A DNA stretch of 64,000 bases from Nitrospirota bacterium (GTDB taxonomy: Bacteria > Nitrospirota > Nitrospiria > JACQCE01), in NCBI GenBank assembly GCA_016201765.1, contig JACQCE010000012.1:8136-72135 (forward strand), read 5' to 3'. Position 1 is the stretch's first letter; each line of letters begins with the position of its first letter. The translations under genes were made by a program, and so were the position numbers. Below are positions 1,556 to 58,602 of this stretch, one piece after another. The notes below the pieces were generated by a model that worked only from the letters and a program-made list of their open reading frames with translations, ran no database searches and was not told the origin of the DNA.

Positions 1556-2266
1556 ATGACGGGTGAGGAGATTCTCATTATCGAGGATGATCCGGACGTC
1601 GCCGGGTTGTTGAAGGCGGAGCTGGTGAAGCACCACTACCGCGCGCGGGTGGCCTCCGACGGCCTGACCGGCATGGCTGAAGCTCAGCGGCAGCCGCCGG
1701 CGTTGATCGTTCTGGACTTGATGCTGCCGGTGCTGAACGGCTGGGAAGTCTGCCGGTCGCTCAAACGCCATCCCAAAACCCGATCGGTGCCGTTGTTGAT
1801 CCTCACCGCCTTGACGACCGAAGAGGAACGGGTGAAGGGGCTGGAATTGGGGGCGGATGATTATCTCACCAAGCCATTCAGTCTGAAAGAGTTGATGGCC
1901 CGGATGCGGGCCTTGCTGCGACGCGACCGCCTGGTGGATCAAGAGAAGGGGTCGCTTACCGTTGCGGGACCGCTGATCATCGACAGCGACCGGCATGAGG
2001 CCAAAATGGCCGGCCGATTGTTGAAGCTGACCCCCATCGAATTTGCCCTGCTCACATGTCTGGCCACACAGCCGGGCAAGGTTTTTACCCGCGATCAGTT
2101 GATCTCGCTGCTCTGGGGGGAAGACCGGTTCGTGGAGGAGCATAACCTTGATGTGCACATTCATGCCGTCCGGCAGCAATTGGAGCCGGATGCCGTGCGC
2201 CCCAGCGTGTTGCTGACCGTCCGCGGCGTGGGCTACAAGCTTCAACCCCAAGGCAAACCACGGTAA
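1556..2266 (+). CDS. OmpR/PhoB-family response regulator (receiver + winged-helix)
   Basis: EILIIEDDPDVAGLL...LIVLDLMLP...ADDYLTKPF receiver motifs and a C-terminal VRGVGYKL winged helix. ATG at 1556 chosen; the 1496 start adds an implausible extension. Pho-regulon context; no kinase gene adjacent. Confidence 0.85.
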   Translation: MTGEEILIIEDDPDVAGLLKAELVKHHYRARVASDGLTGMAEAQRQPPALIVLDLMLPVLNGWEVCRSLKRHPKTRSVPLLILTALTTEEERVKGLELGADDYLTKPFSLKELMARMRALLRRDRLVDQEKGSLTVAGPLIIDSDRHEAKMAGRLLKLTPIEFALLTCLATQPGKVFTRDQLISLLWGEDRFVEEHNLDVHIHAVRQQLEPDAVRPSVLLTVRGVGYKLQPQGKPR

Positions 2267-2317
2267 TTCCTCTCGTCGTATGGCCACGGTTTGGCTGTTT
2301 GTCCGAGTTGACAGAGA

Positions 2318-2347
2318 TGTAACACGCGATTCATGACCGTGTAACAC
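2318..2347 (+). promoter_or_regulatory. Pho-box-like direct repeats (TGTAACAC x2, 22 bp apart)
   Basis: TGTAACAC at 2318-2325 and 2340-2347, two helical turns apart. They lie upstream of the small ORF and porin and share the GTAACA core with the pstS boxes. Confidence 0.45.
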
Positions 2348-2392
2348 CGGTGCGGTACTGTACGCGCATATGGATGCAGAGGAGCAAAGTCG

Positions 2393-2500
2393 ATGGGCCA
2401 TAAGATGGCAAAGCTGAAAGAACTCAAGGAAGACGACAAGAAGATCAAGCCGAGTTTGCTCAAGGCGATTCGTCGGGAAGTCGCCCGGGCGATTGGTTGA
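2393..2500 (+). CDS. Candidate 35-aa lysine-rich small protein (MGHKMAKLKELKEDDKKIKPSLLKAIRREVARAIG)
   Basis: ATG preceded by GAGGAG with 7-nt spacing. It sits between the Pho-box-like repeats and the porin gene. Not in the ORF track (too short). No homology claim. Confidence 0.3.
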   Translation: MGHKMAKLKELKEDDKKIKPSLLKAIRREVARAIG

Positions 2501-2590
2501 CACGGCGTATCCGTCCGGGGAGGGGCGGGGAGACGCCGAAGAGCCGGGCAACCGGAACAACACTCCCATCATAAGAGGAGAGGAGCGAGG

Positions 2591-3826
2591 GTGATGAAGC
2601 AGGTGATCGGACTGGTAGGTGTGTTGGGGATGTTGGCAGGGTTGTCCACACCGGTTGTGGCGGCTGACAAGGTTCCGTTGAAAGAACTGCTGGTTCAGAA
2701 GGGCACCATTACCATGGAGGAGGCGGCCACCGTTCAGGACTCGGTCTGGGCCAAGTGGGTCGATCGGGTGACGTTCTCCGGCGATCTGCGGATCCGGGAT
2801 GAGCAGTTCTGGTACTCGGCCGTGCCCGGCACCAATGACGATCGCAACAATCGGAATCGCGTTCGGTTTCGGTTGCGCTTCGGTTCCCAGATCAAGATCA
2901 AGGATCTTTTGGTGGTGGTCCGTTTAGCCAGCGGCACGGGGGAAGCGGTGTCGACCAACCAAACATTCGACAATCTTTTCACCCAAAAATCGATCTGGAT
3001 CGATCAGGCGTATCTGAGCTGGAATCCGGCGATGGCCCGCTGGGCGACGATTTCAGCCGGGCGGATGCAGAACCCCTTTGTGCGGTTCTACTCCTCCGAT
3101 ATCGTCTGGGATGACGACGTCAATCCGGAGGGTATTGCCGAGCAATTGCAGTTCAAGTCAGGCGGGACGGTGCTCTTTGTCAACCTGGCGCAACTGGTGC
3201 TGGACGAGGACGGTCCGGCCGCCGCTCCATCCACCGACGGCCACGAACAGTGGATGATCGCGCAACAGGTGGGAGTAACGGTGGAACCCAGCAGCACGCT
3301 CAAGGCCACGCTGGCAGGCGCCTTTTATGAAGTGCTCAATGGCACGAAGGGCACCTTCAGTCAGAATCCGGTGCAGGACGGCAATACGAGAGCTGCGGGC
3401 ATCCTGGTGAATCGCTACCACATCCTGGACCTGACGGCGGCGCTGAATGTCAACGCGGGACCGCTGCCGCTGGCCATCATGGCCGACTACGTGAGAAATT
3501 TGGCCGATACGGTGAATGCGGCGGGAACGGCTCCGACCGGCAATGTCGGCTACCAAGTTGGCGCCATCCTGGGCAAGGCCAGCGATCCGAACACGTTCGA
3601 GCTGGCCTACTTCTACAAGGTCGCGGAAACCGACGCCACGCTGGCCGATCTGGCCGACTCCGACTTCGGCGACGGCGGAATCAACCGTCGGGGCCACATC
3701 GTCTGGGTTGCCTACAATCCAGCGAAGTATTTCCAGGCGAAGGCCAAGATGTTTGTCACGACGTCGGACGGCCCGCTCAAGGATGATATCACCCGGTTGC
3801 AAGTCGACTTCTCCACAAAGTTTTAA
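2591..3826 (+). CDS. Outer-membrane beta-barrel porin, probably the phosphate-starvation porin
   Basis: Signal peptide MMKQVIGLVGVLGMLAGLSTPVVAADK and a C-terminal ...VDFSTKF with terminal Phe. Located between the regulator and pstS. Confidence 0.65.
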   Translation: MMKQVIGLVGVLGMLAGLSTPVVAADKVPLKELLVQKGTITMEEAATVQDSVWAKWVDRVTFSGDLRIRDEQFWYSAVPGTNDDRNNRNRVRFRLRFGSQIKIKDLLVVVRLASGTGEAVSTNQTFDNLFTQKSIWIDQAYLSWNPAMARWATISAGRMQNPFVRFYSSDIVWDDDVNPEGIAEQLQFKSGGTVLFVNLAQLVLDEDGPAAAPSTDGHEQWMIAQQVGVTVEPSSTLKATLAGAFYEVLNGTKGTFSQNPVQDGNTRAAGILVNRYHILDLTAALNVNAGPLPLAIMADYVRNLADTVNAAGTAPTGNVGYQVGAILGKASDPNTFELAYFYKVAETDATLADLADSDFGDGGINRRGHIVWVAYNPAKYFQAKAKMFVTTSDGPLKDDITRLQVDFSTKF

Positions 3827-3832
3827 GGTGAC

Positions 3833-3871
3833 GTAACACGAATGTAACATGGCTGTAACATGCACGTAACG
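3833..3871 (+). promoter_or_regulatory. Four 11-bp-phased GTAACA boxes (Pho-box-like) upstream of pstS
   Basis: GTAACA at 3833, 3844 and 3855, and GTAACG at 3866, with exact 11-bp spacing. This mirrors the direct-repeat, one-helical-turn architecture of PhoB boxes. Confidence 0.55.
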
Positions 3872-3901
3872 ATGACATGGCACCGTAGAGGAGGTTTCAA
3901 G

Positions 3902-4945
3902 ATGTGGCGGGAGCGACAACAAATCGTGAATGGACAGATGACGTTCGTGAAGCTCGGCCTGGTCCTGTTCGGACTGGTGGCGTTGGTCGCAGTGATCGGC
4001 GTGAAGGCGTGGGCGGCAACCTTGATCAAGGTGGATGGCTCCAGCACCGTCTATCCGATCACGGAGGCGGTGGCCGAGGAGTTTCAAAAGAAAAACCCGG
4101 GCGTGAGGGTGACGGTGGGCATTTCCGGAACCGGCGGCGGTTTCAAGAAGTTCTGCGCCGGCGAGACGCAGATTTCCGACGCGTCACGGCCGATCAAGCT
4201 CTCCGAGGTTCAGAGCTGCGTGGACAACGAGATCAGCTACATCGAACTGCCCGTGGCGTTTGACGGCATGGCCGTGATGGTCAATCCCAAAAATGATTGG
4301 GCCAAGAGCATGACCGTGGCGGAGTTGAAAAAACTCTGGGAGCCGGCGGCGCAGGGCAAAATCAAACGCTGGAGTCAGATCCGGGCCGGCTGGCCGGACA
4401 AGGAGATTCATCTCTTCGGTCCCGGCGTGGATTCGGGCACGTTCGACTATTTCACCGAGGCGATCGTCGGCAAGGCCCAGTCGAGCCGGGGCGATTACAC
4501 GGCCAGCGAAGACGACAACGTCCTGGTACAGGGGGTCGCGAGCGATGAGTATGCCCTGGGTTACTTTGGGCTCGCGTATTATGAAGAGAATCAGGGGAAG
4601 CTGAAGCTCGTCGCCATTGATGACGAAAACCCCAAAAATGGCGACGGCCCCGTGCTGCCCAGCCTGGAGACGGTGATCGACGGCACCTATCAGCCGCTGG
4701 CCCGGCCGCTTTTCATCTATGTGGCCAAGAAGGCTTCGGATCGGCCGGAGATCCAGACTTTCGTCCGTTCCTACCTGACGGAAGCGAAGGGATTGGTCAA
4801 GGAAGTCGGCTACATTCCGCTGCAGGATAAAGTCTATGAGCTGGGACTGAAGCGGTTTGACAAACGGGTGGCCGGCTCGCTCTTCAGCACCAAACCGGCA
4901 GTTGGCGTGACGCTGGAGAGCCTGCTCGCCTCCGAGTCCAAATAA
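3902..4945 (+). CDS. pstS: Phosphate ABC transporter substrate-binding protein
   Basis: GGAGG lies 8 nt before ATG 3902. Signal peptide present, with DGSSTVYPI and [11 protein letters not shown] motifs, followed by pstCAB. The listed start at 3860 lies inside the Pho boxes. Confidence 0.9.
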
Positions 4946-4952
4946 GGGGGGC

Positions 4953-5849
4953 ATGCAACCGATTCAGCAGAGGAGGAGGATCGGGGAAGGCGCCCTTCAC
5001 CTGATCCTCTTCCTCTGTGGCAGCGTGTCGATCCTGACCACGCTGGGGATCGTGGCGGTTCTCATCTTTGAGACGATCGAATTTTTCAGGGAAGTTCCGC
5101 TCGTCTCGTTTCTGTTCGACACACAGTGGACGCCGCTCTTTGCCGACAAGCATTTCGGCATCTGGCCGCTGATTGCCGGCACCGCATTGACGTCCATGAT
5201 TGCCATTGGGGTGGCCGTGCCCATCGGCCTGCTCAGCGCGATTTACCTGAGTGAATACGCGTCGTCCGGCGTGCGGCGGAGCATCAAGCCGACCCTGGAG
5301 GTCCTGGCCGGCGTGCCCACGGTTGTCTACGGCTATTTTGCCCTCCTGTTTGTCACACCGCTGTTGCAGCGGTTCATCCCCGGCATGTCCGGGTTCAACG
5401 CGCTCAGCGCCGGCATCGTGATGGGGATCATGATCATTCCGATGATTTCATCGCTCAGCGAAGACGCGATGTACGCGGTGCCCAACAGCCTGCGGGAGGC
5501 GGCCTACGCGCTGGGGGCGTCCAAACTGCAAGTATCGTTGCGGGTGGTGGTGCCGGCCGCGTTTTCCGGCATCGCCGCCTCGTTTCTGCTGGGGGTCTCC
5601 CGCGCGGTGGGTGAAACGATGATCGTGGCCATTGCCGCCGGGCAGCTGCCCCAACTGACGGCCAACCCGCTGGTGCCGGTCGAAACGATGACGGCCTACA
5701 TCGTGCAGGTGAGTCTCGGCGATACGCCGACGGGCACACTCGAGTACCGGACGATCTTCGCCGTGGGCATGATGCTCTTTTTGAGCACGCTGGGGTTGAA
5801 TCTCTTCAGTCAATGGCTGCGCGAGCGGTACCGGGAGCAATACCAGTGA
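4953..5849 (+). CDS. pstC: Phosphate ABC transporter permease
   Basis: Multi-TM protein with the [10 protein letters not shown] permease signature; gene order pstS-C-A-B. Confidence 0.9.
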
Positions 5850-8409: not shown

Positions 8410-8485
8410 TGCGCAAGATCAGCCATTTAGGGGGCAGGGGGGCCGCCGGAGGGCACGGCGGATGGCGGGGAGCGGAGGGAGCGCA

Positions 8486-8890
8486 ATGGCGGACGAGTGG
8501 CGGACCAAGAAACGCTATCCGTTGACGGCCTGGGTGGATCTGGTCGTCCGGGAGACGGGCGCGGCGCGGCGCGGCTACGTCACCAACATCAGCCGCGAAG
8601 GGCTCGGTCTCTACTACCTGGGCACGGTCGGTGTGGGCCAAGAGGTGACGCTCACGATCCATATGCTGGGCCCCAGCGGTTCGGAAATCGTCGAAACCGC
8701 CAAGGGGTATGTCGTGTGGGAGGATCAATGGGGCGGCATCACCATCATGGGCGTCAAATTTGAGCGGCCGCTCGGTAAAAACGCCCCGACCATTCTGGAC
8801 CGGATGACCCGGGCCGACGACCAGGGCCCGCCGTTGCGGTCCTCGCCGTCGTTGGGAACGCCGCCGGCGCCGCACTTCCCCACGGCATAA
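8486..8890 (+). CDS. PilZ-domain protein (c-di-GMP receptor type)
   Basis: RKRYPL...GYVTNISREGLGL matches the RxxxR...D/NxSxxG PilZ pattern. ATG 8486 preferred over 8312. Confidence 0.65.
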   Translation: MADEWRTKKRYPLTAWVDLVVRETGAARRGYVTNISREGLGLYYLGTVGVGQEVTLTIHMLGPSGSEIVETAKGYVVWEDQWGGITIMGVKFERPLGKNAPTILDRMTRADDQGPPLRSSPSLGTPPAPHFPTA

Positions 8891-8973: not shown

Positions 8974-9279
8974 ATGGCGATGAACAGCAGCGGCGTGCTG
9001 GTCGCGATGGTGGCCATTCTCGGGATCGGTCTGGGCCACGTCTGGGTCAGGACGCTGGAATACCACGCCGGCAAGGGGATCTGGCCGGTCTCATTGGTGA
9101 TCGGTCTGGCGCTCATCGGCGCGTCGTTGACCGTCTCGTCGGATTTTCTCTCGGCGCTGCTGGCGATACCCGGCGCCATCTTCATTTATGCCGTGAAGGA
9201 GTTTTTCGAGCAGGAACGGCGGGTGCTGAAGGGCCATGCGCCGAGAAATCCCAAGCGGCGGTATCCGAAAGCGGATTAG
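8974..9279 (+). CDS. Small membrane protein, unknown function
   Basis: Three hydrophobic segments. The listed GTG 8923 lies in the T-run after the PilZ gene, so ATG 8974 is used. The last codons (AAA GCG GAT TAG) are the first GCGGATTA repeat unit. Confidence 0.45.
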   Translation: MAMNSSGVLVAMVAILGIGLGHVWVRTLEYHAGKGIWPVSLVIGLALIGASLTVSSDFLSALLAIPGAIFIYAVKEFFEQERRVLKGHAPRNPKRRYPKAD

Positions 9280-9429
9280 AGAGGCAAACGCGGATTAATG
9301 GAGAAAAGGCGGATTAGTAAAGAAACTGCGGATTAGGGGGTAGTGAAGAAAGAGCGGATGGAATGCTCTTAACCCTTACCCCCCTTTTTCTTTACTAATC
9401 CTTAATCCGGTTTTGTTCCACTAATCCGC
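9271..9429. repeat. GCGGATTA array: 19-bp phased units followed by an inverted set (TAATCCGS)
   Basis: GCGGATTA at 9271, 9290, 9309 and 9328, plus a degenerate unit at 9354. TAATCC(GS) follows at 9396, 9403 and 9422. The array lies between two convergent genes. Confidence 0.9.
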
Positions 9430-9747
9430 TTTTTCTTTATTCAGCCGGTGCAACCGGGCCTTCATTTTTTCAGTCGGGATATGGTCGCCGGTTTTCGTCC
9501 CGACGGCGATGCCCTTCTCAAGCGCCGTGCGCAGTTCATCGGTTCGACCGAGCGCGCGCAATGCCTCGGTCAAACCGTGATGGGCGGCCGTGTAGTCGGG
9601 TTTGAGCTCAATCGCTTTCCGGTAGGCCGCAACCGCCTGCTCCCACTGTTGGGCCTCGCCGTATGCGCCGCCGAGTCCGAAATGGGTCATCGGATCGTTC
9701 GGATCGAGCGCGAGGATCTTCTCGAGTTGTTCGATGCGGGTGGACAT
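9421..9747 (-). CDS. Small TPR-repeat protein
   Basis: 108 aa with TPR-type helices (AYRKAIELKPDYTAAHHGL). The C-terminal KAD-stop is encoded by a repeat unit. Confidence 0.7.
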   Translation of the reverse strand: MSTRIEQLEKILALDPNDPMTHFGLGGAYGEAQQWEQAVAAYRKAIELKPDYTAAHHGLTEALRALGRTDELRTALEKGIAVGTKTGDHIPTEKMKARLHRLNKEKAD

Positions 9748-9793
9748 GTCAAGACGCTTTTTACTGAGGGCCCCTGCCCCGCTGTTGCTTCAA

Positions 9794-9853
9794 TAATCCT
9801 TAATCCGCTTTTTCCCTTTTACCCCTTAATCCGCCCTTGCCTCTCTAATCCGC
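9794..9853 (-). repeat. GCGGATTA array, locus 2 (minus-sense)
   Basis: TAATCC at 9794 and TAATCCGC at 9801, 9827 and 9846 (spacings 26 and 19). Starts 3 nt after the stop of the 9856 ORF. Confidence 0.85.
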
Positions 9854-12297: not shown

Positions 12298-12383
12298 GGG
12301 TCAAGGGTCAAGGGGCCAGGGTCAAGGAACAGGTTAAGGTGATTGTTGTTCTCCCTTGACCCTTGACCCCTGACCCTTCACCC
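12298..12383. repeat. Inverted pair of GGGTSAAGG G-tract arrays (quadruplex-type motif on each strand)
   Basis: Plus-strand G-tracts at 12298, 12305, 12312 and 12319. C-tracts at 12353, 12360, 12367, 12374 and 12381. The second half encodes the VOC C-terminus VKGQGSRVKGE. Confidence 0.8.
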
Positions 12384-13932: not shown

Positions 13933-13982
13933 TAATCCTTAATCCGGTTTTTCTTTACTAATCCGCTGTTATCCCATTCCGC
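13933..13982 (-). repeat. GCGGATTA array, locus 3 (minus-sense)
   Basis: TAATCC at 13933, TAATCCGG at 13940, TAATCCGC at 13959 and a degenerate CATTCCGC at 13975. Ends 4 nt from the CBS gene stop. Confidence 0.8.
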
Positions 13983-14577: not shown

Positions 14578-14716
14578 GGTAGTGGGTCAGTTTCACCGCA
14601 ACCGGCTCAAAAATAGGGACACGTCCCAATTTCCTCGTGCGACGCTCGGCACGCAACGAAATTGGGACGTGTCCCCATTTTTGCCACGGTGGAATCCATC
14701 AAACTGACCCACTACC
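14578..14716 (-). mobile_element. MITE-like element, copy 1 (139 bp)
   Basis: TIR GGTAGTGGGTCAGTTT / AAACTGACCCACTACC and an inner 24-bp inverted repeat (IR) AAAAATAGGGACACGTCCCAATTT. Arms are reversed relative to copies 5, 6 and 7. Flanks CGACAGAA / GGATGTGG show no TSD. Confidence 0.85.
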
Positions 14717-26756: not shown

Positions 26757-27316
26757 TGGCTGGACCGGCACTCACCGTGGCCGTGGTGACCGTCAGTGAC
26801 CGGGCCGCTCGCGGCGAACGGATCGATCAGAGCGGTCCCGCGCTGGTCGAGTGGGTTGAGCGGCGCCTGGGCCGGGTGATTCAAACGGCCGTCGTGCCGG
26901 ATGAGCAGCCGGTGATTCGGGCTGAACTGGAACGGTTGATGGATCAGAGCAGCATCGATTTGGTGCTGACCACGGGAGGCACGGGGGTGTCTCCCCGTGA
27001 CGTCACGCCGGAGGCGACGTGGGGCGTGATCGAGCGCGAGGTGCCCGGTGTTGCCGAGCTGATGCGGCTGGAGGGGCTGCGCCACACGCCGCTGGCCATG
27101 CTTTCCCGGGGTGTGTGCGGCATCAGGGGGCGGAGCGTGGTGCTGAACCTGCCCGGCAGTCCGACGGGCGCCGTGGAGAGTCTGGAGGCGGTCCTGCCGT
27201 TGCTGCGGCATCTGATCGACAAGGCGCAAGGCGACCCGGCCGACTGCGGAAAAATAGGGACGCGTCCCATTTTCACAGCCACGAGTGATTCTTTGTTAAA
27301 CTTTGAGAATGAATGA
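26753..27316 (+). CDS. moaB: MoaB/Mog-type molybdenum cofactor biosynthesis protein; 3' end runs into a repeat core
   Basis: VVTVSDR...[16 protein letters not shown] motif. The last roughly 22 codons and the stop lie inside the 27250-27339 hairpin element. Confidence 0.8.
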
Positions 27317-27339
27317 AAATGGGACGTGTCCCTATTTTT
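27250..27339. repeat. Core-only copy of the MITE inner hairpin (no outer TIRs)
   Basis: AAAAATAGGGACGCGTCCCATTTT ... AAAATGGGACGTGTCCCTATTTTT with a 42-nt unrelated centre. It fills the moaB-moaC junction. Confidence 0.8.
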
Positions 27340-29534: not shown

Positions 29535-29683
29535 GGTCGTGGGCCAGTTTTATACTGCCCGCTTGTTTGACGTCAAAAATAGGGACACGTCCCAATTTGG
29601 GTGAGTTCCTGCTGCCTGTTTGTGACTGTCTCTGGGAAAATTGGGACGTGTCCCTATTTTTCTGGTGAAACTGGCCCACTACC
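29535..29683 (+). mobile_element. MITE-like element, copy 3 (149 bp, divergent centre)
   Basis: GGTCGTGGGCCAGTTT / AAACTGGCCCACTACC TIRs and the inner 24-bp IR. Flanks GGATTGTC / GGACCGTC match 6 of 8. Starts 12 nt after the moaA stop. Confidence 0.8.
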
Positions 29684-33307: not shown

Positions 33308-33329
33308 GAGGCCGTTGGACCGGCCGCCG

Positions 33330-33469
33330 GGCAGTGGGTCAGTTTCACCGTGACCTGTCTCAAAAATAGGGACACGTCCCCATTTCCTCATGCGGCGCGC
33401 GGCGCTCACCGAAATTGGGACGTGTCCCCATTTTTGCCACGGGTGAATCCATTCAACTGACCCGCTACC
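33330..33469 (-). mobile_element. MITE-like element, copy 4 (140 bp) with perfect 8-bp TSD
   Basis: GGCAGTGGGTCAGTTT / (T)CAACTGACCCGCTACC TIRs. Identical flanks GGCCGCCG at 33322-33329 and 33470-33477. Confidence 0.9.
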
Positions 33470-33484
33470 GGCCGCCGGGTCGCC

Positions 33485-34518: not shown

Positions 34519-35139
34519 ATGCCTGTTGAACTGTTGCTGTTTGACCTCGGCAATGTGATCGTGCGCGTGTCGCACGCGGCCATGGCCGGAGCGCTGGCGG
34601 CCCATGCCCGCGATCCCCGTTTTCAGGATGCCCGTCGGGTGCTGACCCTCGCGTTTGATGATCGTGAGGGGCTGACGGTCGGTTTTGACGAAGGGCGGTT
34701 GAGCGCCGAGGCGTTCCACCGCGCGGTCGCCGACCGGCTCGGACTGTCCATCCCGTTCGAGGAATTTGCCCGGTGCTGGAACGAGGGCTTTGAAGAAAAC
34801 CGGGAGGTGACGGCGCTGGTCCGCCGGCTGCACGGCCGCTACCGGCTCATGCTGCTCTCCAACACCAACGAGTTGCATTACCGTCATCTGGCATCCCGCC
34901 TGCCCGTGCTGTCACTGATGGAGCGGACGTTTCTGTCCTTCGAGCTGGGCCTGCGGAAGCCCGACCGGGCGATCTATGAGCGGGTGCTGGCGGAGAGCGG
35001 GGTCAAGCCGGAACGCATCATCTACGTCGATGACATTCCGGCCTATACACGGGCGGCGGCCGATCTGAAGATCCAGGCTGTGACCTTCGAATCGGCCGCC
35101 CAGCTTGAGCGGGCGCTCCGGGAACGGGGCGTGATCTAA
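34519..35139 (+). CDS. HAD-superfamily hydrolase
   Basis: LLLFDLGNV (DxG variant of motif I), LLSNTN and YVDD motifs. ATG 34519 chosen. Confidence 0.7.
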   Translation: MPVELLLFDLGNVIVRVSHAAMAGALAAHARDPRFQDARRVLTLAFDDREGLTVGFDEGRLSAEAFHRAVADRLGLSIPFEEFARCWNEGFEENREVTALVRRLHGRYRLMLLSNTNELHYRHLASRLPVLSLMERTFLSFELGLRKPDRAIYERVLAESGVKPERIIYVDDIPAYTRAAADLKIQAVTFESAAQLERALRERGVI

Positions 35140-35210
35140 AAAGGGGACAGGCTACTTTTTCCACATTACCCGATACGGCAATGGATGAAAAAGTAGCCTG
35201 TCCCCTTTTT
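35138..35210. terminator. Family-2 long hairpin acting as a bidirectional terminator between convergent genes
   Basis: AAAAAGGGGACAGGCTACTTTTTC ... GAAAAAGTAGCCTGTCCCCTTTTT. It spans exactly from the HAD stop to the peroxiredoxin stop. Confidence 0.75.
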
Positions 35211-35757
35211 ATGATGTCTGCAGTGATTTGAGCGTCTGGTGGATCTGCAGTGCGTGATCGGTCGGCTGGACGTCGGGGAACAGCTTGCGGATGACGCCCC
35301 GGGGATCGATCAACACGGTGCTGCGGGAGGCGACCGTCACCCCCATGTAGCTGGTCAGTGTGCCGTAGAGCCGGCAGACCTCGTGTCTGTTGTCGGCCAG
35401 AATGGGAAACGTCAGTTTGAACTTGTCGGCGAAGGCCTTGTGGGACTCGACCGAATCGACACTCACCCCCAGCACCGCGGCGCGCAGTTGCTGCAGCGCG
35501 ACGAGATTGTCGCGGAACGAGCAGGCCTCCTTGGTGCAGCCCGGCGTGTCGTCCTTGGGATAAAAGTACAACACCACCCATTGTCCGCGTAACGACGACA
35601 GCGTCACCGCCTTCCCGGTCTGATCCTGCAAGGTGAAATCGGGCGCGGGTTCCCCCTCCTTGACGGTAAATTGCGCCGGGCCGGCAAAGGCGCGATAAGC
35701 GCCGATGGCCAGGACGATCACAACCAGCAATCCGAGCAACAAGGCGGCGGTTTTCAT
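35209..35757 (-). CDS. Secreted peroxiredoxin (Bcp/AhpC-TSA family)
   Basis: Signal peptide and YFYPKDDTPGCTKEAC active site. Confidence 0.85.
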   Translation of the reverse strand: MKTAALLLGLLVVIVLAIGAYRAFAGPAQFTVKEGEPAPDFTLQDQTGKAVTLSSLRGQWVVLYFYPKDDTPGCTKEACSFRDNLVALQQLRAAVLGVSVDSVESHKAFADKFKLTFPILADNRHEVCRLYGTLTSYMGVTVASRSTVLIDPRGVIRKLFPDVQPTDHALQIHQTLKSLQTS

Positions 35758-42706: not shown

Positions 42707-43069
42707 TAGGGTAGAAGGTACCTGATGGCTGAAATATGTCAACCCAAATGGGGGGGTATATTTTCAGGCCTTGTGATATCAAGCGGTTAGGCGGGTGAAA
42801 ATAACGGGGGAGCCGCCATCGTCCAAATCGGCGAGCGCCGGTTCCCCGTGTGAAACACCGGATGCTCCCTCGTGCGGCGGCGTGAAGCGCCGGGAATGTC
42901 AGTTCGACGACCCACATGCCCATCAGGGCAGGCTGGGGGGCATCTCCATGCTGATTTCGAGACGATTTGGAGTGCGCCAAATCCTGTTTGTGGCGCAGGG
43001 CGGTCGACTTGATCCTCGTGCCACTTGTTCTTACAATGGAGCCCATGAATGGTTGGTTATCGCCCTTCC

Positions 43070-43208
43070 GGTAGTGGGTCAGTTTGATGGATTCCACCGT
43101 GGCAAAAATGGGGACACGTCCCAATTTCGTTGCGTGCCGTGTGTCGCACGAGGAAATTGGGACGTGTCCCCATTTTTGAGCCGGTTGCGGTGAAACTGAC
43201 CCACTACC
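43070..43208 (+). mobile_element. MITE-like element, copy 5 (139 bp) with perfect TIRs and perfect 8-bp TSD
   Basis: GGTAGTGGGTCAGTTT at 43070 and its exact reverse complement ending at 43208. Flanks GCCCTTCC at 43062-43069 and 43209-43216. Confidence 0.92.
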
Positions 43209-43227
43209 GCCCTTCCACGGAGCGTGA

Positions 43228-44200: not shown

Positions 44201-46027
44201 ATGGAAGAATTTTCCCGTTTCAATCGGCGATCACGCTCCCTTTTTATCAGCTTGCTGCTGATGGTGATCACCATCACGGTGTTTTGGCCGGTGGGAGAGC
44301 ACGGTTTTATCGCTTATGACGACGATCAGTACGTCACCGAGAACCGTCAGGTCCAGCAGGGCGTAACTCTCCAGGGAGTCCAATGGGCTTTTACAACCGT
44401 CCGCGCCGGCAACTGGCATCCGCTGACCTGGCTGTCCCATATGCTCGATGTGGATCTCTATGGGATGTCTCCCGCCGGGCATCATCTGACCAACCTGTTG
44501 CTCCATGTGGGCAACGTATTGCTGTTGTTGGGAGTGTTAAGGCGGTTGACCGGAGCGTTGTGGCCCAGCGCCTTCGTCGCGGCCCTTTTTGCGGTGCACC
44601 CCCTGCATGTCGAGTCCGTGGCCTGGATCGCCGAGCGCAAGGATGTCTTGAGCGCGCTGTTCTGGCTGCTGACGCTGTGGGCCTATCTTTGTTATACCGA
44701 ACAGCCGGGTGTGCGGAGATATCTGCTGGTGGTGCTGACGTTTGCAGCGGGGCTGCTGGCCAAGCCGATGCTGGTGACCCTGCCGTTTGTGCTGCTGTTG
44801 CTGGATTACTGGCCGCTGGGGCGTTTCCCGTCTGGGCAATGGAGCGCACCGGCGAAGCGTTGGCAGATATGGAGGCTGATGCGTGAGAAGGCGCCGCTGG
44901 CGGTCCTGTCCTTCGCTTCCTGTATGGTGACATATGCTGCTCAGCAAGCAGGGGGGGCGATTAAGACATTTGGTGTAATTTCTTTGTCGGCACGTATTGA
45001 AAACGCCCTTGTCGCCTATGTCAGCTATATTGGGTTGCTTCTCTGGCCTCACAACCTGGCGGTCTTCTATCCACACCCCGGCCCGACGTTGCCGCTCTGG
45101 CAGGTGGCGGGGGCGGTCGTGGCGTTGGGCGGCGTGACGCTCCTCGTGCTGCTTGCGGGGAAGCGATTGCCCTATCTGGCCGTGGGTTGGTTCTGGTATC
45201 TGGGGACTCTTGTCCCCGTGATCGGACTCGTTCAGGTCGGGGGCCAAGCGATGGCGGATCGGTATACCTATCTGCCGTTTACCGGCCTGTTCATCATCAT
45301 CGCCTGGGGCGTCTCCGACCTGACGGCCGGATGGCGCCATCAAAAACGCGTGCTGGCGTTGGTGGCCGTCGGGGTGTTGACCGTGTTGGTCGCGGCAGCG
45401 TGGGTGCAGATAGGGTATTGGCGCACCAGCGTCACGCTCTTTGAACATGCTCTTGAAGTGACGGGCGGCAACTACGTGGCGCATAACGGTCTGGCGAATG
45501 AACTTGCCAGACAGGGCAGGCTCAAAGAGGCTGAAGATCAGTATCTGCAAGCGTTACAAATTAAGCCGGATTTTGCGGAAGCGCACAATAATTTTGGATT
45601 GCTGCTGGCCCAGCAGGGGAAGCTCGAAATCGCCGTTGCACACTACTCCAAGGCCCTGTGGCTGGAGCCCAATCTTGCAAGAGCCCACTACAACTTGGGT
45701 ATCGTCCTGGCCCAGCAGGATAAATTTTACGAGGCCGGCGCCCATTACACACAGGCCATTCTGTCGATGCCGGATTTTGCCGATGCGTACAACAATCTGG
45801 GCATTGTGCTGGCCCGGCAGGGAAAGCTTGATGAGGCAATGAGCCATTTTAGGGAAGCGCTCCGTCTACGCCCAGATCTGATACCGGCGCATAACAATCT
45901 CGGGCAGGTTTTGGCCAAGCAGGGCAAGTACGATGAGGCCAACCACCATTTACTCGAAGCCTTGCGCCTCGGCGCCCAAGCACGAGAGCGTGCACGGTCA
46001 CTCGGTGCTGGTCCTGATCCGCGGTAA
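44201..46027 (+). CDS. GT-C-type polytopic membrane protein with C-terminal TPR array (PMT/TMTC-like), paralog 1
   Basis: First-loop acidic motif FIAYDDDQYV, about 10 TM segments, conserved GQAMADRYTYLP, and at least 6 TPR units. Confidence 0.75.
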   Translation: MEEFSRFNRRSRSLFISLLLMVITITVFWPVGEHGFIAYDDDQYVTENRQVQQGVTLQGVQWAFTTVRAGNWHPLTWLSHMLDVDLYGMSPAGHHLTNLLLHVGNVLLLLGVLRRLTGALWPSAFVAALFAVHPLHVESVAWIAERKDVLSALFWLLTLWAYLCYTEQPGVRRYLLVVLTFAAGLLAKPMLVTLPFVLLLLDYWPLGRFPSGQWSAPAKRWQIWRLMREKAPLAVLSFASCMVTYAAQQAGGAIKTFGVISLSARIENALVAYVSYIGLLLWPHNLAVFYPHPGPTLPLWQVAGAVVALGGVTLLVLLAGKRLPYLAVGWFWYLGTLVPVIGLVQVGGQAMADRYTYLPFTGLFIIIAWGVSDLTAGWRHQKRVLALVAVGVLTVLVAAAWVQIGYWRTSVTLFEHALEVTGGNYVAHNGLANELARQGRLKEAEDQYLQALQIKPDFAEAHNNFGLLLAQQGKLEIAVAHYSKALWLEPNLARAHYNLGIVLAQQDKFYEAGAHYTQAILSMPDFADAYNNLGIVLARQGKLDEAMSHFREALRLRPDLIPAHNNLGQVLAKQGKYDEANHHLLEALRLGAQARERARSLGAGPDPR

Positions 46028-46137
46028 GATCGCAGGGGCGCTCAATCATACTTCCCGGAGGCTGCTGCTTCTGCGCACGGATGTCCCGGCGGCCCGGCGT
46101 GTGAAATTTAAACGGTTCATATAAACTCGTGCTTAAG

Positions 46138-48120
46138 ATGACTGCACATCCACCGGTCAAGACAGCCTTTGCCGTTCTGCGTCGTCGCCCTGTGGCGGTC
46201 CTGAGCCTGTTGTTGATGGTGGGCACCCTGATCGTCTTCTGGCCGGTGCGTCATAATGAATTCATCGATTATGACGATCATCTCTATGTCTCGGAGAATC
46301 CCCATCTCCGTGACGGCCTGACCTGGGCAGGCGTCCGGTGGGCGTCCACGGCCGATTTGACGGCCGATTCGCCGAATGCGGACTACTGGATTCCGGCGAC
46401 GTTTCTCTCTCATCTGATCGTGATTCAACTGTTCGGGATGGACCCGGCCGCCCACCATCTGGCGAACGTCCTCCTGCACGCCCTGAATGCCATGCTGCTG
46501 TTTGTGCTCCTGCAGAGGATGACCGGGTCGACGTGGCCCAGCGCCTTCGTCGCCGCCCTCTTCGCGGTTCATCCGCTCCACGTGGAGTCCGTGGCGTGGG
46601 TCAGTGAGCGCAAGGATGTGCTGAGCGGACTGTTTTTCATGCTGACGCTCTGGGCCTACGTGCGGTACGTGGAGCGCCCCGCGCTCCATCGGTATCTCGC
46701 GGTGGTCCTGGTCTTTGCGTTGGGGTTGATGGCCAAGCCCATGCTGGTCACCGTTCCGTGTCTGTTGCTGCTGCTTGATTACTGGCCGCTCCACCGTATT
46801 CCCGCAACTGCGGTGCAGGGCCGGGGGCGGGTGTGGTGGCGCCTGGCACGGGAGAAAGTGCCCCTGTTCGCGCTGGCCGCGGCCTCCGCCGTGATCACGC
46901 TTTTGGCCGCACAGCGGGAGGGCGTGGTGCATTCGTTTGGGGAGACACCGGCATCGGTGCGCCTCGGGAACGTGCTGGTCTCCTATGTGAGCTACATCGG
47001 CAGGATGATCTGGCCGCATGATCTGGCGGTGCTCTATCCCTATCCGCGCGGAGGTGTTCCCGCATGGCAGGCGGCGGGAGCGGGTGTGCTGCTCGTGTGC
47101 ATCTCCCTTGTTGCCATAAGAGAACGGCGGCGTCGGCCGTATCTGATCGCGGGGTGGCTGTGGTATCTTGTCGCGCTTGTGCCGGTAATCGGTTTGGTGC
47201 AGGCGGGTGTGCAGGCCATGGCGGATCGGTATACCTACCTTCCGCTGATCGGGCTGTTCATCCTGGCGGCCTGGGGCCTGTCCGGCCTGCTGGCGTCCTT
47301 GCGGTATCGTCAGGTTCTCCTGTCCGGTGCGGCGATCGGCACACTGGCCTTCTGTATCGTGATGGTGCAGGGGGATCTTCGCTACTGGCGCAATGACGCC
47401 ACGCTGTTCGAGCAGGCCCTCCGCGTGACGGAGGGCAATTACATCGCATACAACAACGTCGGCATTGATTTGGTCAATGCCGGCAGGCTTGATGACGCGC
47501 GCAATCATTTTCAGCGGGCGATTGAGATTAATCCCGATTTCGCCCTGGCCCATAACAATCTGGGAACCGTGTTGGCGGCTCAGGGCCGGCATGATGAGGC
47601 CATTCGCCACTTTGCCGAAGCCCTCCGGCTCGCCCCCGGCCTCGTCGAGGCGAAGCGGAACCTGGGAAACGAGCTGGCTCAACGGGGTGACACCGATGCG
47701 GCGATCGACCTGCTGACGGACGCGATTCGCCTCGACCCGGATTTCGCCCAAACGCACAGCGATCTGGGCTCGGTGTTGTTGAAGCTTGGCCGGCGTGATG
47801 ACGCCATCGCGCAGTTGGCCGAAGCCATGCGATTGAACCCCAATCTGGCGCTCGCGCACAACACACTCGGAATGGCGCTCGGCAACCGGGGACGATTTGA
47901 AGAGGCGATCGCACAATTTACTGAAGCGGTGCGTCTTGATCCGGGGCTGGCGCCGGCGCACAATAATCTGGGGATCGCCTATGACAAACTGGGACGGTCC
48001 GGCGAGGCCGTGCAGGAATTTGAGATCGCGCTCAGGCTCGACCCGTCGTTTTCCGAGGCGCGGATGAATCTCAATAGAGTTTTTCAAACACAACACAAGG
48101 CGGGGAAGGCGGCTCCTTGA
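46138..48120 (+). CDS. GT-C-type membrane protein with TPR array, paralog 2
   Basis: FIDYDDHLYV, VQAMADRYTYLP and at least 7 TPR units. Collinear with paralogs 1 and 3. Confidence 0.75.
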   Translation: MTAHPPVKTAFAVLRRRPVAVLSLLLMVGTLIVFWPVRHNEFIDYDDHLYVSENPHLRDGLTWAGVRWASTADLTADSPNADYWIPATFLSHLIVIQLFGMDPAAHHLANVLLHALNAMLLFVLLQRMTGSTWPSAFVAALFAVHPLHVESVAWVSERKDVLSGLFFMLTLWAYVRYVERPALHRYLAVVLVFALGLMAKPMLVTVPCLLLLLDYWPLHRIPATAVQGRGRVWWRLAREKVPLFALAAASAVITLLAAQREGVVHSFGETPASVRLGNVLVSYVSYIGRMIWPHDLAVLYPYPRGGVPAWQAAGAGVLLVCISLVAIRERRRRPYLIAGWLWYLVALVPVIGLVQAGVQAMADRYTYLPLIGLFILAAWGLSGLLASLRYRQVLLSGAAIGTLAFCIVMVQGDLRYWRNDATLFEQALRVTEGNYIAYNNVGIDLVNAGRLDDARNHFQRAIEINPDFALAHNNLGTVLAAQGRHDEAIRHFAEALRLAPGLVEAKRNLGNELAQRGDTDAAIDLLTDAIRLDPDFAQTHSDLGSVLLKLGRRDDAIAQLAEAMRLNPNLALAHNTLGMALGNRGRFEEAIAQFTEAVRLDPGLAPAHNNLGIAYDKLGRSGEAVQEFEIALRLDPSFSEARMNLNRVFQTQHKAGKAAP

Positions 48121-48123
48121 TCG

Positions 48124-48261
48124 GGTAGTGGGTCAGTTTGATGGATTCCACCGTGGCAAAAATAGGGACACGTCCCAATTTCCTCGTGCGACGCACGGCA
48201 CGCAACGAAATTGGGACGTGTCCCTATTTTTAGCCGGTCGCGGTGAAACTGACCCACTACC
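48124..48261 (+). mobile_element. MITE-like element, copy 6 (138 bp); centre inverted relative to the other copies
   Basis: Same arm orientation as copy 5, but the 26-nt centre is its reverse complement (25 of 26). Flanks CTTGATCG / CCTGATCG match 7 of 8. Confidence 0.9.
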
Positions 48262-48355
48262 CCTGATCGTCCATCGTTGACGTGGCGCTTTATCTTCGGG
48301 CGGTTGTCATGATGCCAGCCGGTTTGCTGCTGAGGACGTGGCGCGGGTCCCTTCT

Positions 48356-54133: not shown

Positions 54134-56086
54134 ATGTTGAATCACGTGCTCAGGATGCATGATCGACACCCGGAACGGCTCATCATCCTGTTGCTGATTG
54201 TCCTCACCCTCGCCGCCTACCGGCCGGCACTCCACTACGAGTTCATCAATTACGATGATTACACCTATGTCTCGAAGAATCCCCATCTGAAGGACGGTCT
54301 CACATGGAACGCCGTGCAATGGGCGGTTTCCACCGGTCTGGTGACCAATTATCATGAGGAATTGTGGATCCCGGTCACCTACCTCTCCCATCTGGCGACG
54401 ATCGAGCTGTTTGGCTTCGACCCTGCCTGGCATCACGGGGTCAACGTCGGTCTGCATGTCGTCAACACCGTCCTGCTGTTTCTGCTGCTCCGGAGGATGA
54501 CGGGAGCCCTGTGGCCCGGTGCGTGCGTGGCCGCGCTGTTTGCGGTGCACCCGCTGCATGTGGAGTCGGTCGCCTGGGTCGTTGAGCGCAAGGATGTGCT
54601 GAGCGCGTTGTTTTTGATCCTGACACTGCTGGCGTATGTCCGGTACGCCGAGCAACCGACGCGGCCCCGGTATCTCGCGGTGGCGGCGGCGCTGGCGCTG
54701 GGCCTGATGTCGAAGCCCATGCTGGTGACCGCGCCGTTCATCCTCCTGCTCCTGGACTACTGGCCGCTGGACCGCTTCGGGTCGGGCGGGTCAAACCGGC
54801 ACGACGGCATCATGACGGCGTGGAAACTGGTGTGGGAAAAACTGCCGTTGTTCGGCCTCGTGGCGGTGTTCAGCGCGCTGACGTACTTTTTGAAAGGCGG
54901 GGGGATGGCCACGCGTTCGATGGAATGGTTCCCGCTGTGGGTTCGCGCCGGGAATGCCCTTGTGTCCTACGTTGGTTACATCGAAAAGATGCTCTGGCCT
55001 CTCGGATTGGCGGTGTTTTACCCCCACCCGGGCCAGACCCTCCCTCCATGGCGGGTGGTCGGCGCCGTGGTGGTGCTGTCGCTGGTGTCGATCGTGGTCG
55101 TCCGGATGCGCCGCCGGCGGCCCTATCTTGTGACGGGATGGTTGTGGTACCTCGTGACGCTTCTGCCGGTGATCGGTTTCATCCAGATCGGCGGTCAGGC
55201 GATGGCCGATCGTTTTACCTATGTGCCGCTGATCGGTCTGTTCATCATGATGAGCTGGGGCATTGACGACCTGACGGCCGCATGGCCGGCGCGGAGAGTC
55301 GTGCTGGCGGCGTCGGCCGGCGCGCTGCTGCTGATCCTGCTGATCCTGACGCGCGCGCAGCTGACCCATTGGCGGAACAGTCTGACGCTGTTCGAGCATG
55401 CGCTCGGCGTGACAGCCAACAACTACGTGGCGCACAACAATCTCGGCATGGCGTTGTACGATCAGGGCAGGGTCGAGGAGTCGATCGCCCATTATGCCGA
55501 GGCGTTGCGCATTCAGCCGAATTTTTCGCCGGCGCACTGCAACCGTGCGGACGCCCTGGCAAAACTGGGACGGTTCGATGAGGCGAAGGACGAATACGCC
55601 CGAACACTCGCGATCAATCCCGCCGATGTGCGCGCGCACGTCAACCTGGGCGTCGTCTTTGCCGGGCAGGGGAGATACGGGGAGGCCGTCCCGCATTACC
55701 GCCGGGCGCTGGCGCTCGAACCCGACAATCCGGACGCCCATAACAACCTGGGCGTGGCGCTGGTGGAATTGGGGAGCTACCAGGAGGCCGTCATGCATTA
55801 CAGGGAGGCGCTGGATGCCGGCGCAGCCGGCGGGCGGGTTCACAGCAATCTGGGCGTTGCACTGGCCAGGCAGGGGCGGTTTGACGAGGCGATGGAGCAG
55901 TTTCAACAAGCCCTGGCGGTCGAGCCCGATTCAGAACAGGCGCATAACAATCTGGGCTATGCCCTTCTTCAGCGGGGCCGCATTGATGACGCGATCGGGC
56001 AGTTCACCCGGACGCTGCAGATCAACCCCGCCAACGCAGCGGCACGACGGAATCTGAATGACGCCCTCGCGCGGCGCAATCGGTGA
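54134..56086 (+). CDS. GT-C-type membrane protein with TPR array, paralog 3
   Basis: FINYDDYTYV, GQAMADRFTYVP and at least 7 TPR units. Confidence 0.75.
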   Translation: MLNHVLRMHDRHPERLIILLLIVLTLAAYRPALHYEFINYDDYTYVSKNPHLKDGLTWNAVQWAVSTGLVTNYHEELWIPVTYLSHLATIELFGFDPAWHHGVNVGLHVVNTVLLFLLLRRMTGALWPGACVAALFAVHPLHVESVAWVVERKDVLSALFLILTLLAYVRYAEQPTRPRYLAVAAALALGLMSKPMLVTAPFILLLLDYWPLDRFGSGGSNRHDGIMTAWKLVWEKLPLFGLVAVFSALTYFLKGGGMATRSMEWFPLWVRAGNALVSYVGYIEKMLWPLGLAVFYPHPGQTLPPWRVVGAVVVLSLVSIVVVRMRRRRPYLVTGWLWYLVTLLPVIGFIQIGGQAMADRFTYVPLIGLFIMMSWGIDDLTAAWPARRVVLAASAGALLLILLILTRAQLTHWRNSLTLFEHALGVTANNYVAHNNLGMALYDQGRVEESIAHYAEALRIQPNFSPAHCNRADALAKLGRFDEAKDEYARTLAINPADVRAHVNLGVVFAGQGRYGEAVPHYRRALALEPDNPDAHNNLGVALVELGSYQEAVMHYREALDAGAAGGRVHSNLGVALARQGRFDEAMEQFQQALAVEPDSEQAHNNLGYALLQRGRIDDAIGQFTRTLQINPANAAARRNLNDALARRNR

Positions 56087-57597: not shown

Positions 57598-57667
57598 AAA
57601 AAGGGGACAGGCTACTTTTTCTGATTATCGAGCATGGATGCCGTTGAAAAAGTAGCCTGTCCCCTTT
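57598..57667 (-). repeat. Family-2 long hairpin, copy 2, filling the whole macro-glpK spacer
   Basis: Same 22-bp stem as 35138-35210 with a different loop. It abuts the macro-domain stop (57669) and the glpK start (57596). Confidence 0.8.
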
Positions 57668-57668
57668 G

Positions 57669-58208
57669 CTATTCGCCGACGGAGAGTTCTTCGAGCGTGC
57701 GCTGATAGATCTTATAGGTCTTGTCGTCAAACAGGACGAACCGGACCAGTTCGATCTCCGGATGCTGAACCAGGTAGCCGCCGACGGTCGAGAGTGCGAT
57801 CCGGGCGGCCTCCTCGACCGGATAACGGTAGGCGCCGGTGCTGATTGAGGGGAAGGCGAGCGAGCGGATCCGGTGTTTGGAGGCCAGTTCCAGACTGCTC
57901 CGGTAACTTTTCTCCAGTAATCTGGGCTCGTTGTGCCGGCCGTCTTTGTAGACCGGGCCGACGGTGTGAATCACATGCTTGGCTTTGAGCTGTCCGCCCC
58001 CGGTCAGCCGCGCTTCGCCGGCCGGGCAGGGGGCGAGCGGTTTGCACTCCTCCATGATCGAAGGGCCGCCGGCTTTGTGAATCGCGCCGTCGACGCCGCC
58101 GCCCCCGCTCAGCGTGGTGTTGGCGGCGTTCACGATCGCGTCGGTCTCCTGGGCGGTGATGTCGCCCTTGATCAACTCGACGGCGGACCCTTTGATGGCA
58201 ATTCGCAC
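57669..58208 (-). CDS. Macro-domain protein (O-acetyl-ADP-ribose deacetylase/YmdB-like)
   Basis: DAIVNAANTTLSGGGGVDGAIHKAGG and SISTGAYRYP motifs. Confidence 0.88.
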   Translation of the reverse strand: MRIAIKGSAVELIKGDITAQETDAIVNAANTTLSGGGGVDGAIHKAGGPSIMEECKPLAPCPAGEARLTGGGQLKAKHVIHTVGPVYKDGRHNEPRLLEKSYRSSLELASKHRIRSLAFPSISTGAYRYPVEEAARIALSTVGGYLVQHPEIELVRFVLFDDKTYKIYQRTLEELSVGE

Positions 58209-58477: not shown

Positions 58478-58602
58478 GGTAGTGGGCCAGTTTGGCAAAA
58501 ATGGGGACACGTCCCAATTTCGTTGGTTGCCGCGCGCAGCATGAGGAAATTGGGACGTGTCCCTATTTTTGAAACATGTCACGGTGAACCTGGCCCACTA
58601 CC
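58478..58602 (+). mobile_element. MITE-like element, copy 7 (125 bp, left arm internally deleted)
   Basis: GGTAGTGGGCCAGTTT / (A)CCTGGCCCACTACC TIRs. Flanks GGAAACCG / GGAGGCCG match 6 of 8. It lies 17 nt downstream of the purC stop. Confidence 0.85.

Follow-up and report, generated by a model that had tools for sequence, protein, structure and literature searches.

The DNA analysed here is a stretch of 64,000 nucleotides (hereafter the window; G+C content 62%) of contig JACQCE010000012.1 from the Nitrospirota bacterium assembly GCA_016201765.1. At positions 43070-43208 of the window, between two divergent genes, lies a short palindromic element, one of six full copies in the window. The start codon of a GT2 glycosyltransferase gene is found at 43228, and a promoter-like site, kept in the relative L131, is located at 43009-43037, on the other side of the element from that start. 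This site, recognised by consensus match only, would place the element in the 5' untranslated region (UTR) of the glycosyltransferase gene. A preliminary description, made by reading the sequence, had likened the element to MITEs, the miniature transposable elements with inverted repeats.

Searches were carried out across the window with the terminal inverted repeat (TIR) and the inner repeat of the element. With the TIR GGTAGTGGGTCAGTTT and up to three mismatches allowed, 12 matches were obtained, which form six plus/minus pairs and recover all the copies previously listed; 0.16 matches were expected from shuffled sequences. The inner 24-mer gave 14 matches against 0 expected, 12 of them within the six copies and two as an extra pair at 27250-27339. 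The copies are 125-149 bp long and are bounded by the 16-bp TIR GGTAGTGGGYCAGTTT with 0-2 mismatches, the pair in the 43070 copy being GGTAGTGGGTCAGTTT / AAACTGACCCACTACC. When aligned in one orientation, each copy consists of a 16-bp TIR, a linker, a 24-bp inner arm, a 26-bp centre and then another inner arm, linker and TIR. As the two linkers are unequal, each copy has an orientation, and the copies at 14578 and 33330 are reversed compared to the other four. The inner arm AAAAATRGGGACACGTCCCAATTT, which begins with AAAAAT and finishes with ATTT, is a small palindrome by itself (GGGAC-NN-GTCCC). The inner repeat had been described as perfect; an arm pair is indeed present in every copy, but the arms carry 0-1 mismatch from the consensus and are thus near-perfect, not always perfect. 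The whole element folds as one long hairpin, for which -92.9 kcal/mol as RNA (z -13.7) and -58 kcal/mol as DNA (z -14.2) were calculated with the 43070 copy.

Features of the element in the window and of related elements in other genomes (L numbers are our labels for other genomes and contigs; matching positions of the two flanking 8-mers are given as n/8).
Feature	Position	Strand	Basis or remarks
Left target-site duplication of the 43070 copy, GCCCTTCC	43062-43069	.	read in sequence; L131 has the stretch once, no element
MITE copy, 139 bp, subfamily A	43070-43208	+	TIR and arm searches, alignment; flanks GCCCTTCC / GCCCTTCC, 8/8
TIR-L of 43070	43070-43085
Linker A of 43070	43086-43103
Inner arm of 43070	43104-43127
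Centre of 43070	43128-43153
Inner arm of 43070	43154-43177
Linker B of 43070	43178-43192
TIR-R of 43070	43193-43208
Right target-site duplication of the 43070 copy, GCCCTTCC	43209-43216	.	read in sequence
MITE copy, 139 bp, subfamily A, opposite orientation	14578-14716	-	TIR and arm searches; flanks unrelated, CGACAGAA / GGATGTGG, 2/8
MITE copy, 138 bp, subfamily A, central 26 bp inverted	48124-48261	+	target-site duplication 48116-48123, 48262-48269; flanks CTTGATCG / CCTGATCG, 7/8
MITE copy, 140 bp, subfamily B	33330-33469	-	perfect target-site duplication at 33322-33329, 33470-33477; flanks GGCCGCCG / GGCCGCCG, 8/8
MITE copy, 125 bp, subfamily B-like, GGGCCAG TIR variant at both ends, 15-bp left-linker deletion	58478-58602	+	flanks GGAAACCG / GGAGGCCG, 6/8
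MITE copy, 149 bp, subfamily C, GGGCCAG TIR variant, unrelated linkers, unrelated 39-bp centre	29535-29683	+	flanks GGATTGTC / GGACCGTC, 6/8
Stand-alone inner doublet without IS1-type TIRs, 42-bp AT-rich centre	27250-27339	.	moaB/moaC junction
Full-length element with the TIR, L026	584-3791
Full-length element with the TIR, L068	1490-4550
Full-length element with the TIR, L134 (CP050295.1)	1796-5165
Full-length element with the TIR, L135	2267-4900
REPIN-like element, L002	3078-3170
REPIN-like elements, L021	422-531, 6287-6400
REPIN-like elements, L117	3547-3666, 5058-5147
REPIN-like element, L059	2151-2251
REPIN-like element, L033	2485-2609

The 8-mers immediately flanking each copy were re-read, and the values agree with those of the preliminary description. 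A match of six or more positions has a chance probability of 0.011, as estimated from random 8-mer pairs of the window at a spacing of 139 bp; its occurrence at five of the six copies gives P ~1e-9. The element thus has a target-site duplication (TSD) with a fixed length of 8 bp. This property, together with a size within 70-300 bp, TIRs within 15-30 bp and a length too short for a transposase, agrees with the definition of a bacterial MITE (PMC3733652).

Insertion was also evident from relatives, in which empty sites of the kind that the preliminary description had proposed to look for were seen at three of the six insertion points. The flanks of the 43070 copy both align in L131 (~86% nucleotide identity), where the element and one copy of the TSD are lacking. 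No element is present between the Macro and purC genes in L127 and L129 (the 58478 site), or after moaA in L132 and L133 (the 29535 site). Contigs break off within copies in two short-read assemblies obtained independently for the same strain, as expected of a dispersed genomic repeat. When metagenomes were scanned with the inner arm, four more copies were found at other flanks. The inner arm gave no match in viral contigs, nor was any match to the element obtained by blastn among 72,556 plasmids. A literature search with the TIR and arm sequences returned a single string match, unrelated to the element.

Carriers of the same ends were sought in 185,579 species-representative genomes, in which the TIR was found at 119 or more loci; the 16-mer is expected ~500 times by chance in the DNA scanned. 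Among the matches listed, the bases past the TIR pattern are strongly non-random (111 of 132 ends have G at position 17, and 81 of 132 have A at position 18), so that most of these matches are genuine element ends. Pairing of the listed ends, with a few mismatches allowed, gave elements that range in size from 65 bp to 4.1 kb and whose flanks match at 8/8 in at least 24 candidate pairs and at 7/8 in at least 12. The same TIR bounds mini-elements of 65-650 bp and elements of 2.6-4.1 kb in many phyla, and the family, which comprises passenger-carrying elements and dozens of host-specific MITEs, ranges over Acidobacteriota, Planctomycetota, Actinomycetota, Alphaproteobacteria, NC10 and others.

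The 2.6-4.1 kb elements contain a single open reading frame (ORF) of ~290 amino acids (aa), the transposase, in addition to passenger genes. The ORF is encoded at about 15 or more of the matches listed. The exact 16-mer bounds transposase elements of 3.0-4.1 kb in L026, L042, L068, L082 and CP050295.1, and all of these have perfect 8-bp TSDs. The full-length partner with the same TIRs, which the preliminary description had suggested searching for, is thus found in other genomes. In the Mesorhizobium loti 582 plasmid CP050295.1 the element is 3370 bp long, with the TSD CGCTGGTG, and in the Acidiphilium multivorum JZ-6 plasmid NZ_CP041717.1 an element of 2634 bp has the TSD AAGCCGAG; the transposase of both is annotated as IS1 family. 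Among the cargo of the full-length elements are a helix-turn-helix (HTH)-domain protein (367-383 aa) and a ClpP/SDH-like protease, to which the M. loti element adds a 'histone H1' ORF; cargo-carrying IS1-family elements appear to be common in soil bacteria.

The ~290-aa ORF has thousands of homologues to which JGI/NCBI give the name 'IS1 family transposase'. Among NCBIfam models it matches best the IS1 family transposase NF033558 (52-55 bits), and with Pfam DDE_Tnp_IS1 the proteins of L026 and L068 score 35.5 and 23.4 bits. The ends of the window element start with GGTAGTG and its TSD is 8 bp; IS1-family ends are of the form GGnnnTG, with direct repeats of 8-9 bp (ISfinder). The ends also resemble those of ISAba3, an IS1-family member with the TIR GGTGGTGTTTCA..., given also as GGTGGTGTTTCAAAAAGTATGCTG, and with 8-bp TSDs (PMC6382973). 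An 8-bp TSD alone is not diagnostic, and the ~290-aa transposases have weak matches to IS6/IS240, IS481 and rve_3 models as well. Derivation of the element from another DDE family with 8-bp TSDs (IS256, ISL3, IS66 or subgroups of IS5) is nevertheless highly improbable, since the best Pfam and NCBIfam matches and the public annotation all name IS1 and the ends fit the IS1 pattern. The preliminary description had not been able to assign the element to a named family; by its ends and its TSD length it can be named as IS1, to which the transposase linked with it probably belongs as well. The same description's proposal of a DDE-type enzyme making 8-bp duplications is borne out by TSDs above chance and by the enzyme encoded in elements with the same TIR.

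These results strongly indicate a non-autonomous MITE that owes its origin, and its mobilisation in trans, to an IS1-family DDE transposase; its mobile character had been surmised before from its repeats. The transposase would bind the 16-18 bp ends (GGTAGTGGGYCAGTTT, often then GA), and the element would be joined to a target whose strands are cut 8 bp apart; repair of this stagger would give the 8-bp duplication. A partner transposase of the IS1 family would then be present in this genome now, or would have been formerly. The 98-99% identical copies and the empty sites in relatives show that the family has been recently active in this Nitrospirae lineage.

Several observations weigh against this assignment. 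The transposases score under the NCBIfam IS1 cutoff (52-55 against 100 bits) and one of them just under that of Pfam (23.4 against 24.1), placing them in a distant branch of the family. No autonomous partner was found in the 64 kb of this organism that were covered, and no Nitrospirota occur among the 119 matches listed. The copy at 14578 is without a TSD, and only the TIRs and inner arms of the copy at 29535 recur in the others, which is a poor fit to a MITE of single origin. In favour of the assignment, and as the preliminary description had noted, no transposase is seen in the window; tblastn with the partner transposases yielded no homologue there (best E=0.08). Comparison of the MITE with the full-length elements revealed no extended subterminal similarity and no specific parent insertion sequence (IS). 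The metagenome contigs that hold MITE copies show an IS3-like transposase (L125) and an integrase-like ORF (L123) and no IS1 transposase. On L125, the MITE copy at 491-627 is cut at its right TIR by an insertion with the IS3-like (rve-type) transposase on the minus strand, a nested insertion.

All copies are intergenic and occur in both orientations, as first described, and this was borne out by gene calls based on G+C at third codon positions (GC3), by NCBIfam matches and by alignment. Their settings are divergent, convergent and tandem. On either side of the 14578 copy are divergent genes, one for a CBS-domain protein (minus strand) and one for a NifA-like protein (plus strand). The 48124 copy lies between the convergent PMT_2/TPR gene (46129-48120) and RhlE gene (end at 48431), and its left TSD copy includes the TGA stop of the former. 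The 33330 copy begins 22 bp past the stop of a cytochrome c gene, the 29535 copy 11 bp past that of moaA, and the 58478 copy is 17 bp downstream of the purC stop, so that four of the six copies are 3-22 bp behind stop codons. The PMT_2/TPR gene is one of three paralogous glycosyltransferase-like genes by Pfam (44201-48120 and 54134-56086), with DNA identity of 60-79% over long stretches; relatives have one or two of these paralogues at the same place with rearranged neighbours.

The position behind stop codons and the fold of the element raise the question of a function at the RNA or operator level. Copies could be paralogous structured-RNA genes or regulatory hairpins (a terminator, a small RNA or an operator pair for a dimeric regulator) kept by selection and not transposed. 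The hairpin is very stable, A5 and T5 border its inner stem and give it an outline like that of a bidirectional intrinsic terminator, conservation is higher in the inner arms than in the linkers and centre, and the stand-alone doublet at 27250 is kept at one site between lineages ~20% apart. However, the TSDs and empty sites show insertion, the copies occur in both orientations and in every kind of gene context named above, and the base-pair counts across copies, which look like covariation, are what any DNA palindrome gives. The window had no Rfam match at gathering score. Eukaryotic microRNA hairpin models, the only sub-threshold matches in a permissive Rfam scan of the element, were rejected as generic hairpin matches. 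Selection of this kind in place of transposition is thus a very unlikely origin of the copies, and the conserved functional RNA gene named as an alternative in the preliminary description finds no support in Rfam or in the pair counts. Copies may have a secondary, exapted function. The A5-stem-T5 hairpin could act as a bidirectional terminator or mRNA-end structure, and such a role could explain the four copies behind stops. The long hairpin was not picked up by a simple terminator scan, whose loop and stem limits exclude it.

Identity comparison resolved at least three subfamilies among the copies. In subfamily A, the 43070 and 14578 copies and the metagenome copies of L123 and L124 are mutually 98-99% identical (14578 is 98% identical to 43070 and 99% to L123/L124), and the 48124 copy, whose 26-bp centre is inverted relative to its own linkers, is at 88-90%. 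Subfamily B comprises the 33330 copy, which matches a metagenome copy (L121) at a different site with 96.7% identity across 121 aligned bases, and more loosely the 58478 copy. Subfamily C is the 29535 copy, with an overall identity of 65-69% to the others. The GGGCCAG...CTGGCCC variant of the TIR occurs at both ends of the 58478 and 29535 copies and also in a foreign element (L117), and for this reason it marks a lineage of ends and not RNA covariation.

The flanks had previously been interpreted as a decay series in which mismatches accumulate with the age of the insertion. This was only partly right, as it fails for 14578, which by sequence is among the youngest copies. Age was therefore rejected as the reason for its missing TSD, given that the copy is 98-99% identical to one with a perfect TSD and to those in the metagenomes. 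Recombination between copies, or mis-assembly across the repeat in a metagenome-assembled genome (MAG), is more likely. What probably happened is shown by L123 (1520-1658) and L124 (446-584), from different samples (JGI Ga0075353 and Ga0075354), each with one MITE copy between unmatched flanks. The left flank of the L123 copy (…GAGAAATC) and the right flank of the L124 copy (GAGAAATC…) are the two halves of one TSD, and in each contig the repeat connects this half with an unrelated flank on its far side. This points either to recombination between copies or to assemblers taking a wrong path at the repeat. Since the window is MAG sequence, a misjoined contig at 14578-14716 has to be reckoned with, and the L123/L124 pair bears on the trust to be placed in contigs that cross these elements.

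The inner part of the element is separable from its ends. The core is a ~74-bp hairpin doublet with two 24-bp arms (AAAAATRGGGACACGTCCCAATTT) round a variable centre, and it is not what is left of a transposase gene. The arm pair recurs at 27250-27339 (AAAAATAGGGACGCGTCCCATTTT / AAAATGGGACGTGTCCCTATTTTT), where it encloses a different centre, and metagenome contig L122 has another pair without TIRs and with yet another centre. The 27250 doublet is at the same site in L132 (82% amino-acid identity), with ~6 differences by eye over 90 bp, and is absent from L133, which has 60 bp of other sequence instead. A clean 90-bp insertion at this site, whose deletion would restore a moaB-TGA/ATG-moaC overlap, was rejected in view of this different sequence in L133; the doublet may be a replacement and not a simple insertion. 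The doublet (L132 8653-8742; corresponding region of L133, with the other sequence, 8440-8560) lengthens the moaB frame by ~20 codons and holds the moaC ATG chosen by gene callers (MKMGRVPIF...).

Without the doublet, the window copies would measure 62-65 bp, and other genomes have mini-elements of 65-71 bp that are bounded by these TIRs. From this match, the 139-bp element can be read as a mini IS1-type MITE carrying the doublet, and it would best be read as a ~65-bp IS1-type mini-element with a nested or captured hairpin module. The doublet would have entered the MITE before the MITE amplified. The divergent 29535 copy suggests that doublets may have entered MITEs more than once. Among the 119 foreign TIR loci listed, the inner motif was found at none; the core is thus lineage-specific. 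Most of the foreign MITE-sized elements listed have strongly palindromic interiors of their own (z down to -17). Several foreign elements with the same TIR, in MAGs of Terriglobia, Planctomycetaceae and Opitutaceae, enclose GTAG-tagged doublets that resemble repetitive extragenic palindromes (REPs). In the Terriglobia example (GCTGTAGCGGCGGTCTCTGACCGCCG…CGGCGGTCAGAGACCGCCGCTACAGC), one copy in L002 has a perfect doublet between decayed TIRs.

A second family of doublets without TIRs was observed in the window at 35138-35211 and 57598-57670. Its arms (AAAAAGGGGACAGGCTACTTTTT / AAAAAGTAGCCTGTCCCCTTTTT) are 100% complementary over 22-25 nt, and the centres, of 24-25 bp, have diverged. The 35138 doublet is the entire spacer of two convergent genes, both of whose TAA stops lie in its arms. 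The 57598 doublet is the spacer between the start of an FGGY-kinase gene and the stop of the Macro gene, where L127 and L128 hold only GGCGCCGG, which implies insertion or replacement without a visible TSD.

Such doublets invite comparison with REP doublets (REPINs), which are mobilised by the tyrosine transposases known as RAYTs (PMC3116915, PMC3337134). That the whole element is a REPIN-like doublet moved by a RAYT of IS200/IS605 type, with GTAG in its termini (G-GTAG-TGGG) as the REP tag, might be considered in view of its hairpin form, of the inner arm pairs without TIRs at 27250 and in L122, and of the insertion polymorphism without visible TSD in the second doublet family. Y1 transposition gives no target duplication, though, while the full element has 8-bp TSDs, both here and in at least 24 foreign elements; its termini are identical to the ends of IS1-family DDE transposase elements, and the inner arms have no terminal GTAG/CGTC tag. 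For the element as a whole a RAYT-based origin is accordingly the least probable of the alternatives weighed here. It could still hold for the inner doublet alone.

For the full element we retain the IS1-family MITE, and a broader scheme is offered only tentatively, as one that is rather unlikely to be correct. The inner doublets might represent an undescribed, lineage-specific class of small elements inserting without TSD, in two families whose arms are bounded by A5...T5 and which have the look of portable bidirectional terminators. IS1-type mini-elements would repeatedly pick up such hairpins or REPIN-like doublets, and the window element would be a two-layer chimera with two independent routes of spread; or the IS1-type ends would give the hairpins DDE-based movement between loci and hosts. 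The separable hairpin cores provide a testable link of DDE-type MITEs to REPIN-like repeats.

The element is of a known kind, a MITE, and a modest added interest lies in its separable core, the second doublet family and the breadth of the IS1-type family with the same ends. With the assignment, a repeat at which assemblies of an uncultured Nitrospirae lineage break up has been named (IS1-family MITE) and clearly bounded, and an IS1-type element family with an almost invariant end of 16-18 bp is seen to be very widespread. A hairpin of about -93 kcal/mol, predicted in the 5' UTR at one copy and found behind stops at four, could alter the expression of neighbouring genes.

Other repeats were also noted in the window. 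Arrays of the TAATCC(G)/GGATTA motif in T-rich repeats (9268-9447, 9771-9838, 13936-13977) include long imperfect inverted repeats round a small gene at 9421-9747; these arrays have the appearance of clustered binding sites or of a further repeat family. Between two minus-strand genes, an inverted repeat at 12298-12383 is made of tandem GGGTCAAGG units (GGGTCAAGGGTCAAGGGGCCAGGGTCAAGG / CCTTGACCCTTGACCCCTGACCC), with 26 nt between the arms.

Compared with known systems, the window element has in common with IS1-family IS (ISAba3 and the M. loti and A. multivorum elements) ends of the form GGT(A/G)GTG..TCA and the 8-bp target duplication. The 16-bp TIR is identical in the M. loti element and in about a dozen full-length MAG elements. 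It differs from these IS in its length of 125-149 bp, in its lack of coding capacity and in an interior unrelated to those of the long elements, which carry passenger genes and whose transposase clade has a single ~290-aa ORF distant from the NCBIfam IS1 model.

With REPINs, as defined with REPs in PMC3733652 and PMC3116915, the inner module shares two short inverted arms round a short spacer and the formation of a hairpin, and insertion of the TIR-less doublets into tiny intergenic spacers without visible TSD is a REPIN-like trait. Unlike REPINs, the first doublet family is untagged at its arm ends and has far more variable centres than usual REPIN spacers, the full element has DDE-type TIRs and TSDs, and no RAYT is known for this lineage, for which no search aimed at RAYTs was made.

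The classical bacterial MITEs include the Correia/NEMIS elements of Neisseria, ERIC, RUP, Nezha and MITEAba12 (PMC3733652, PMC6382973). The window element resembles them in its size (70-300 bp) and TIRs (15-30 bp), in being ORF-less, intergenic and multicopy, in its strong hairpin and in mobilisation in trans. Correia makes a TA duplication and MITEAba12 one of 9 bp. The window element is set apart from these classical MITEs by its IS1-type ends, its 8-bp TSD and a separable doublet core that also exists without TIRs.

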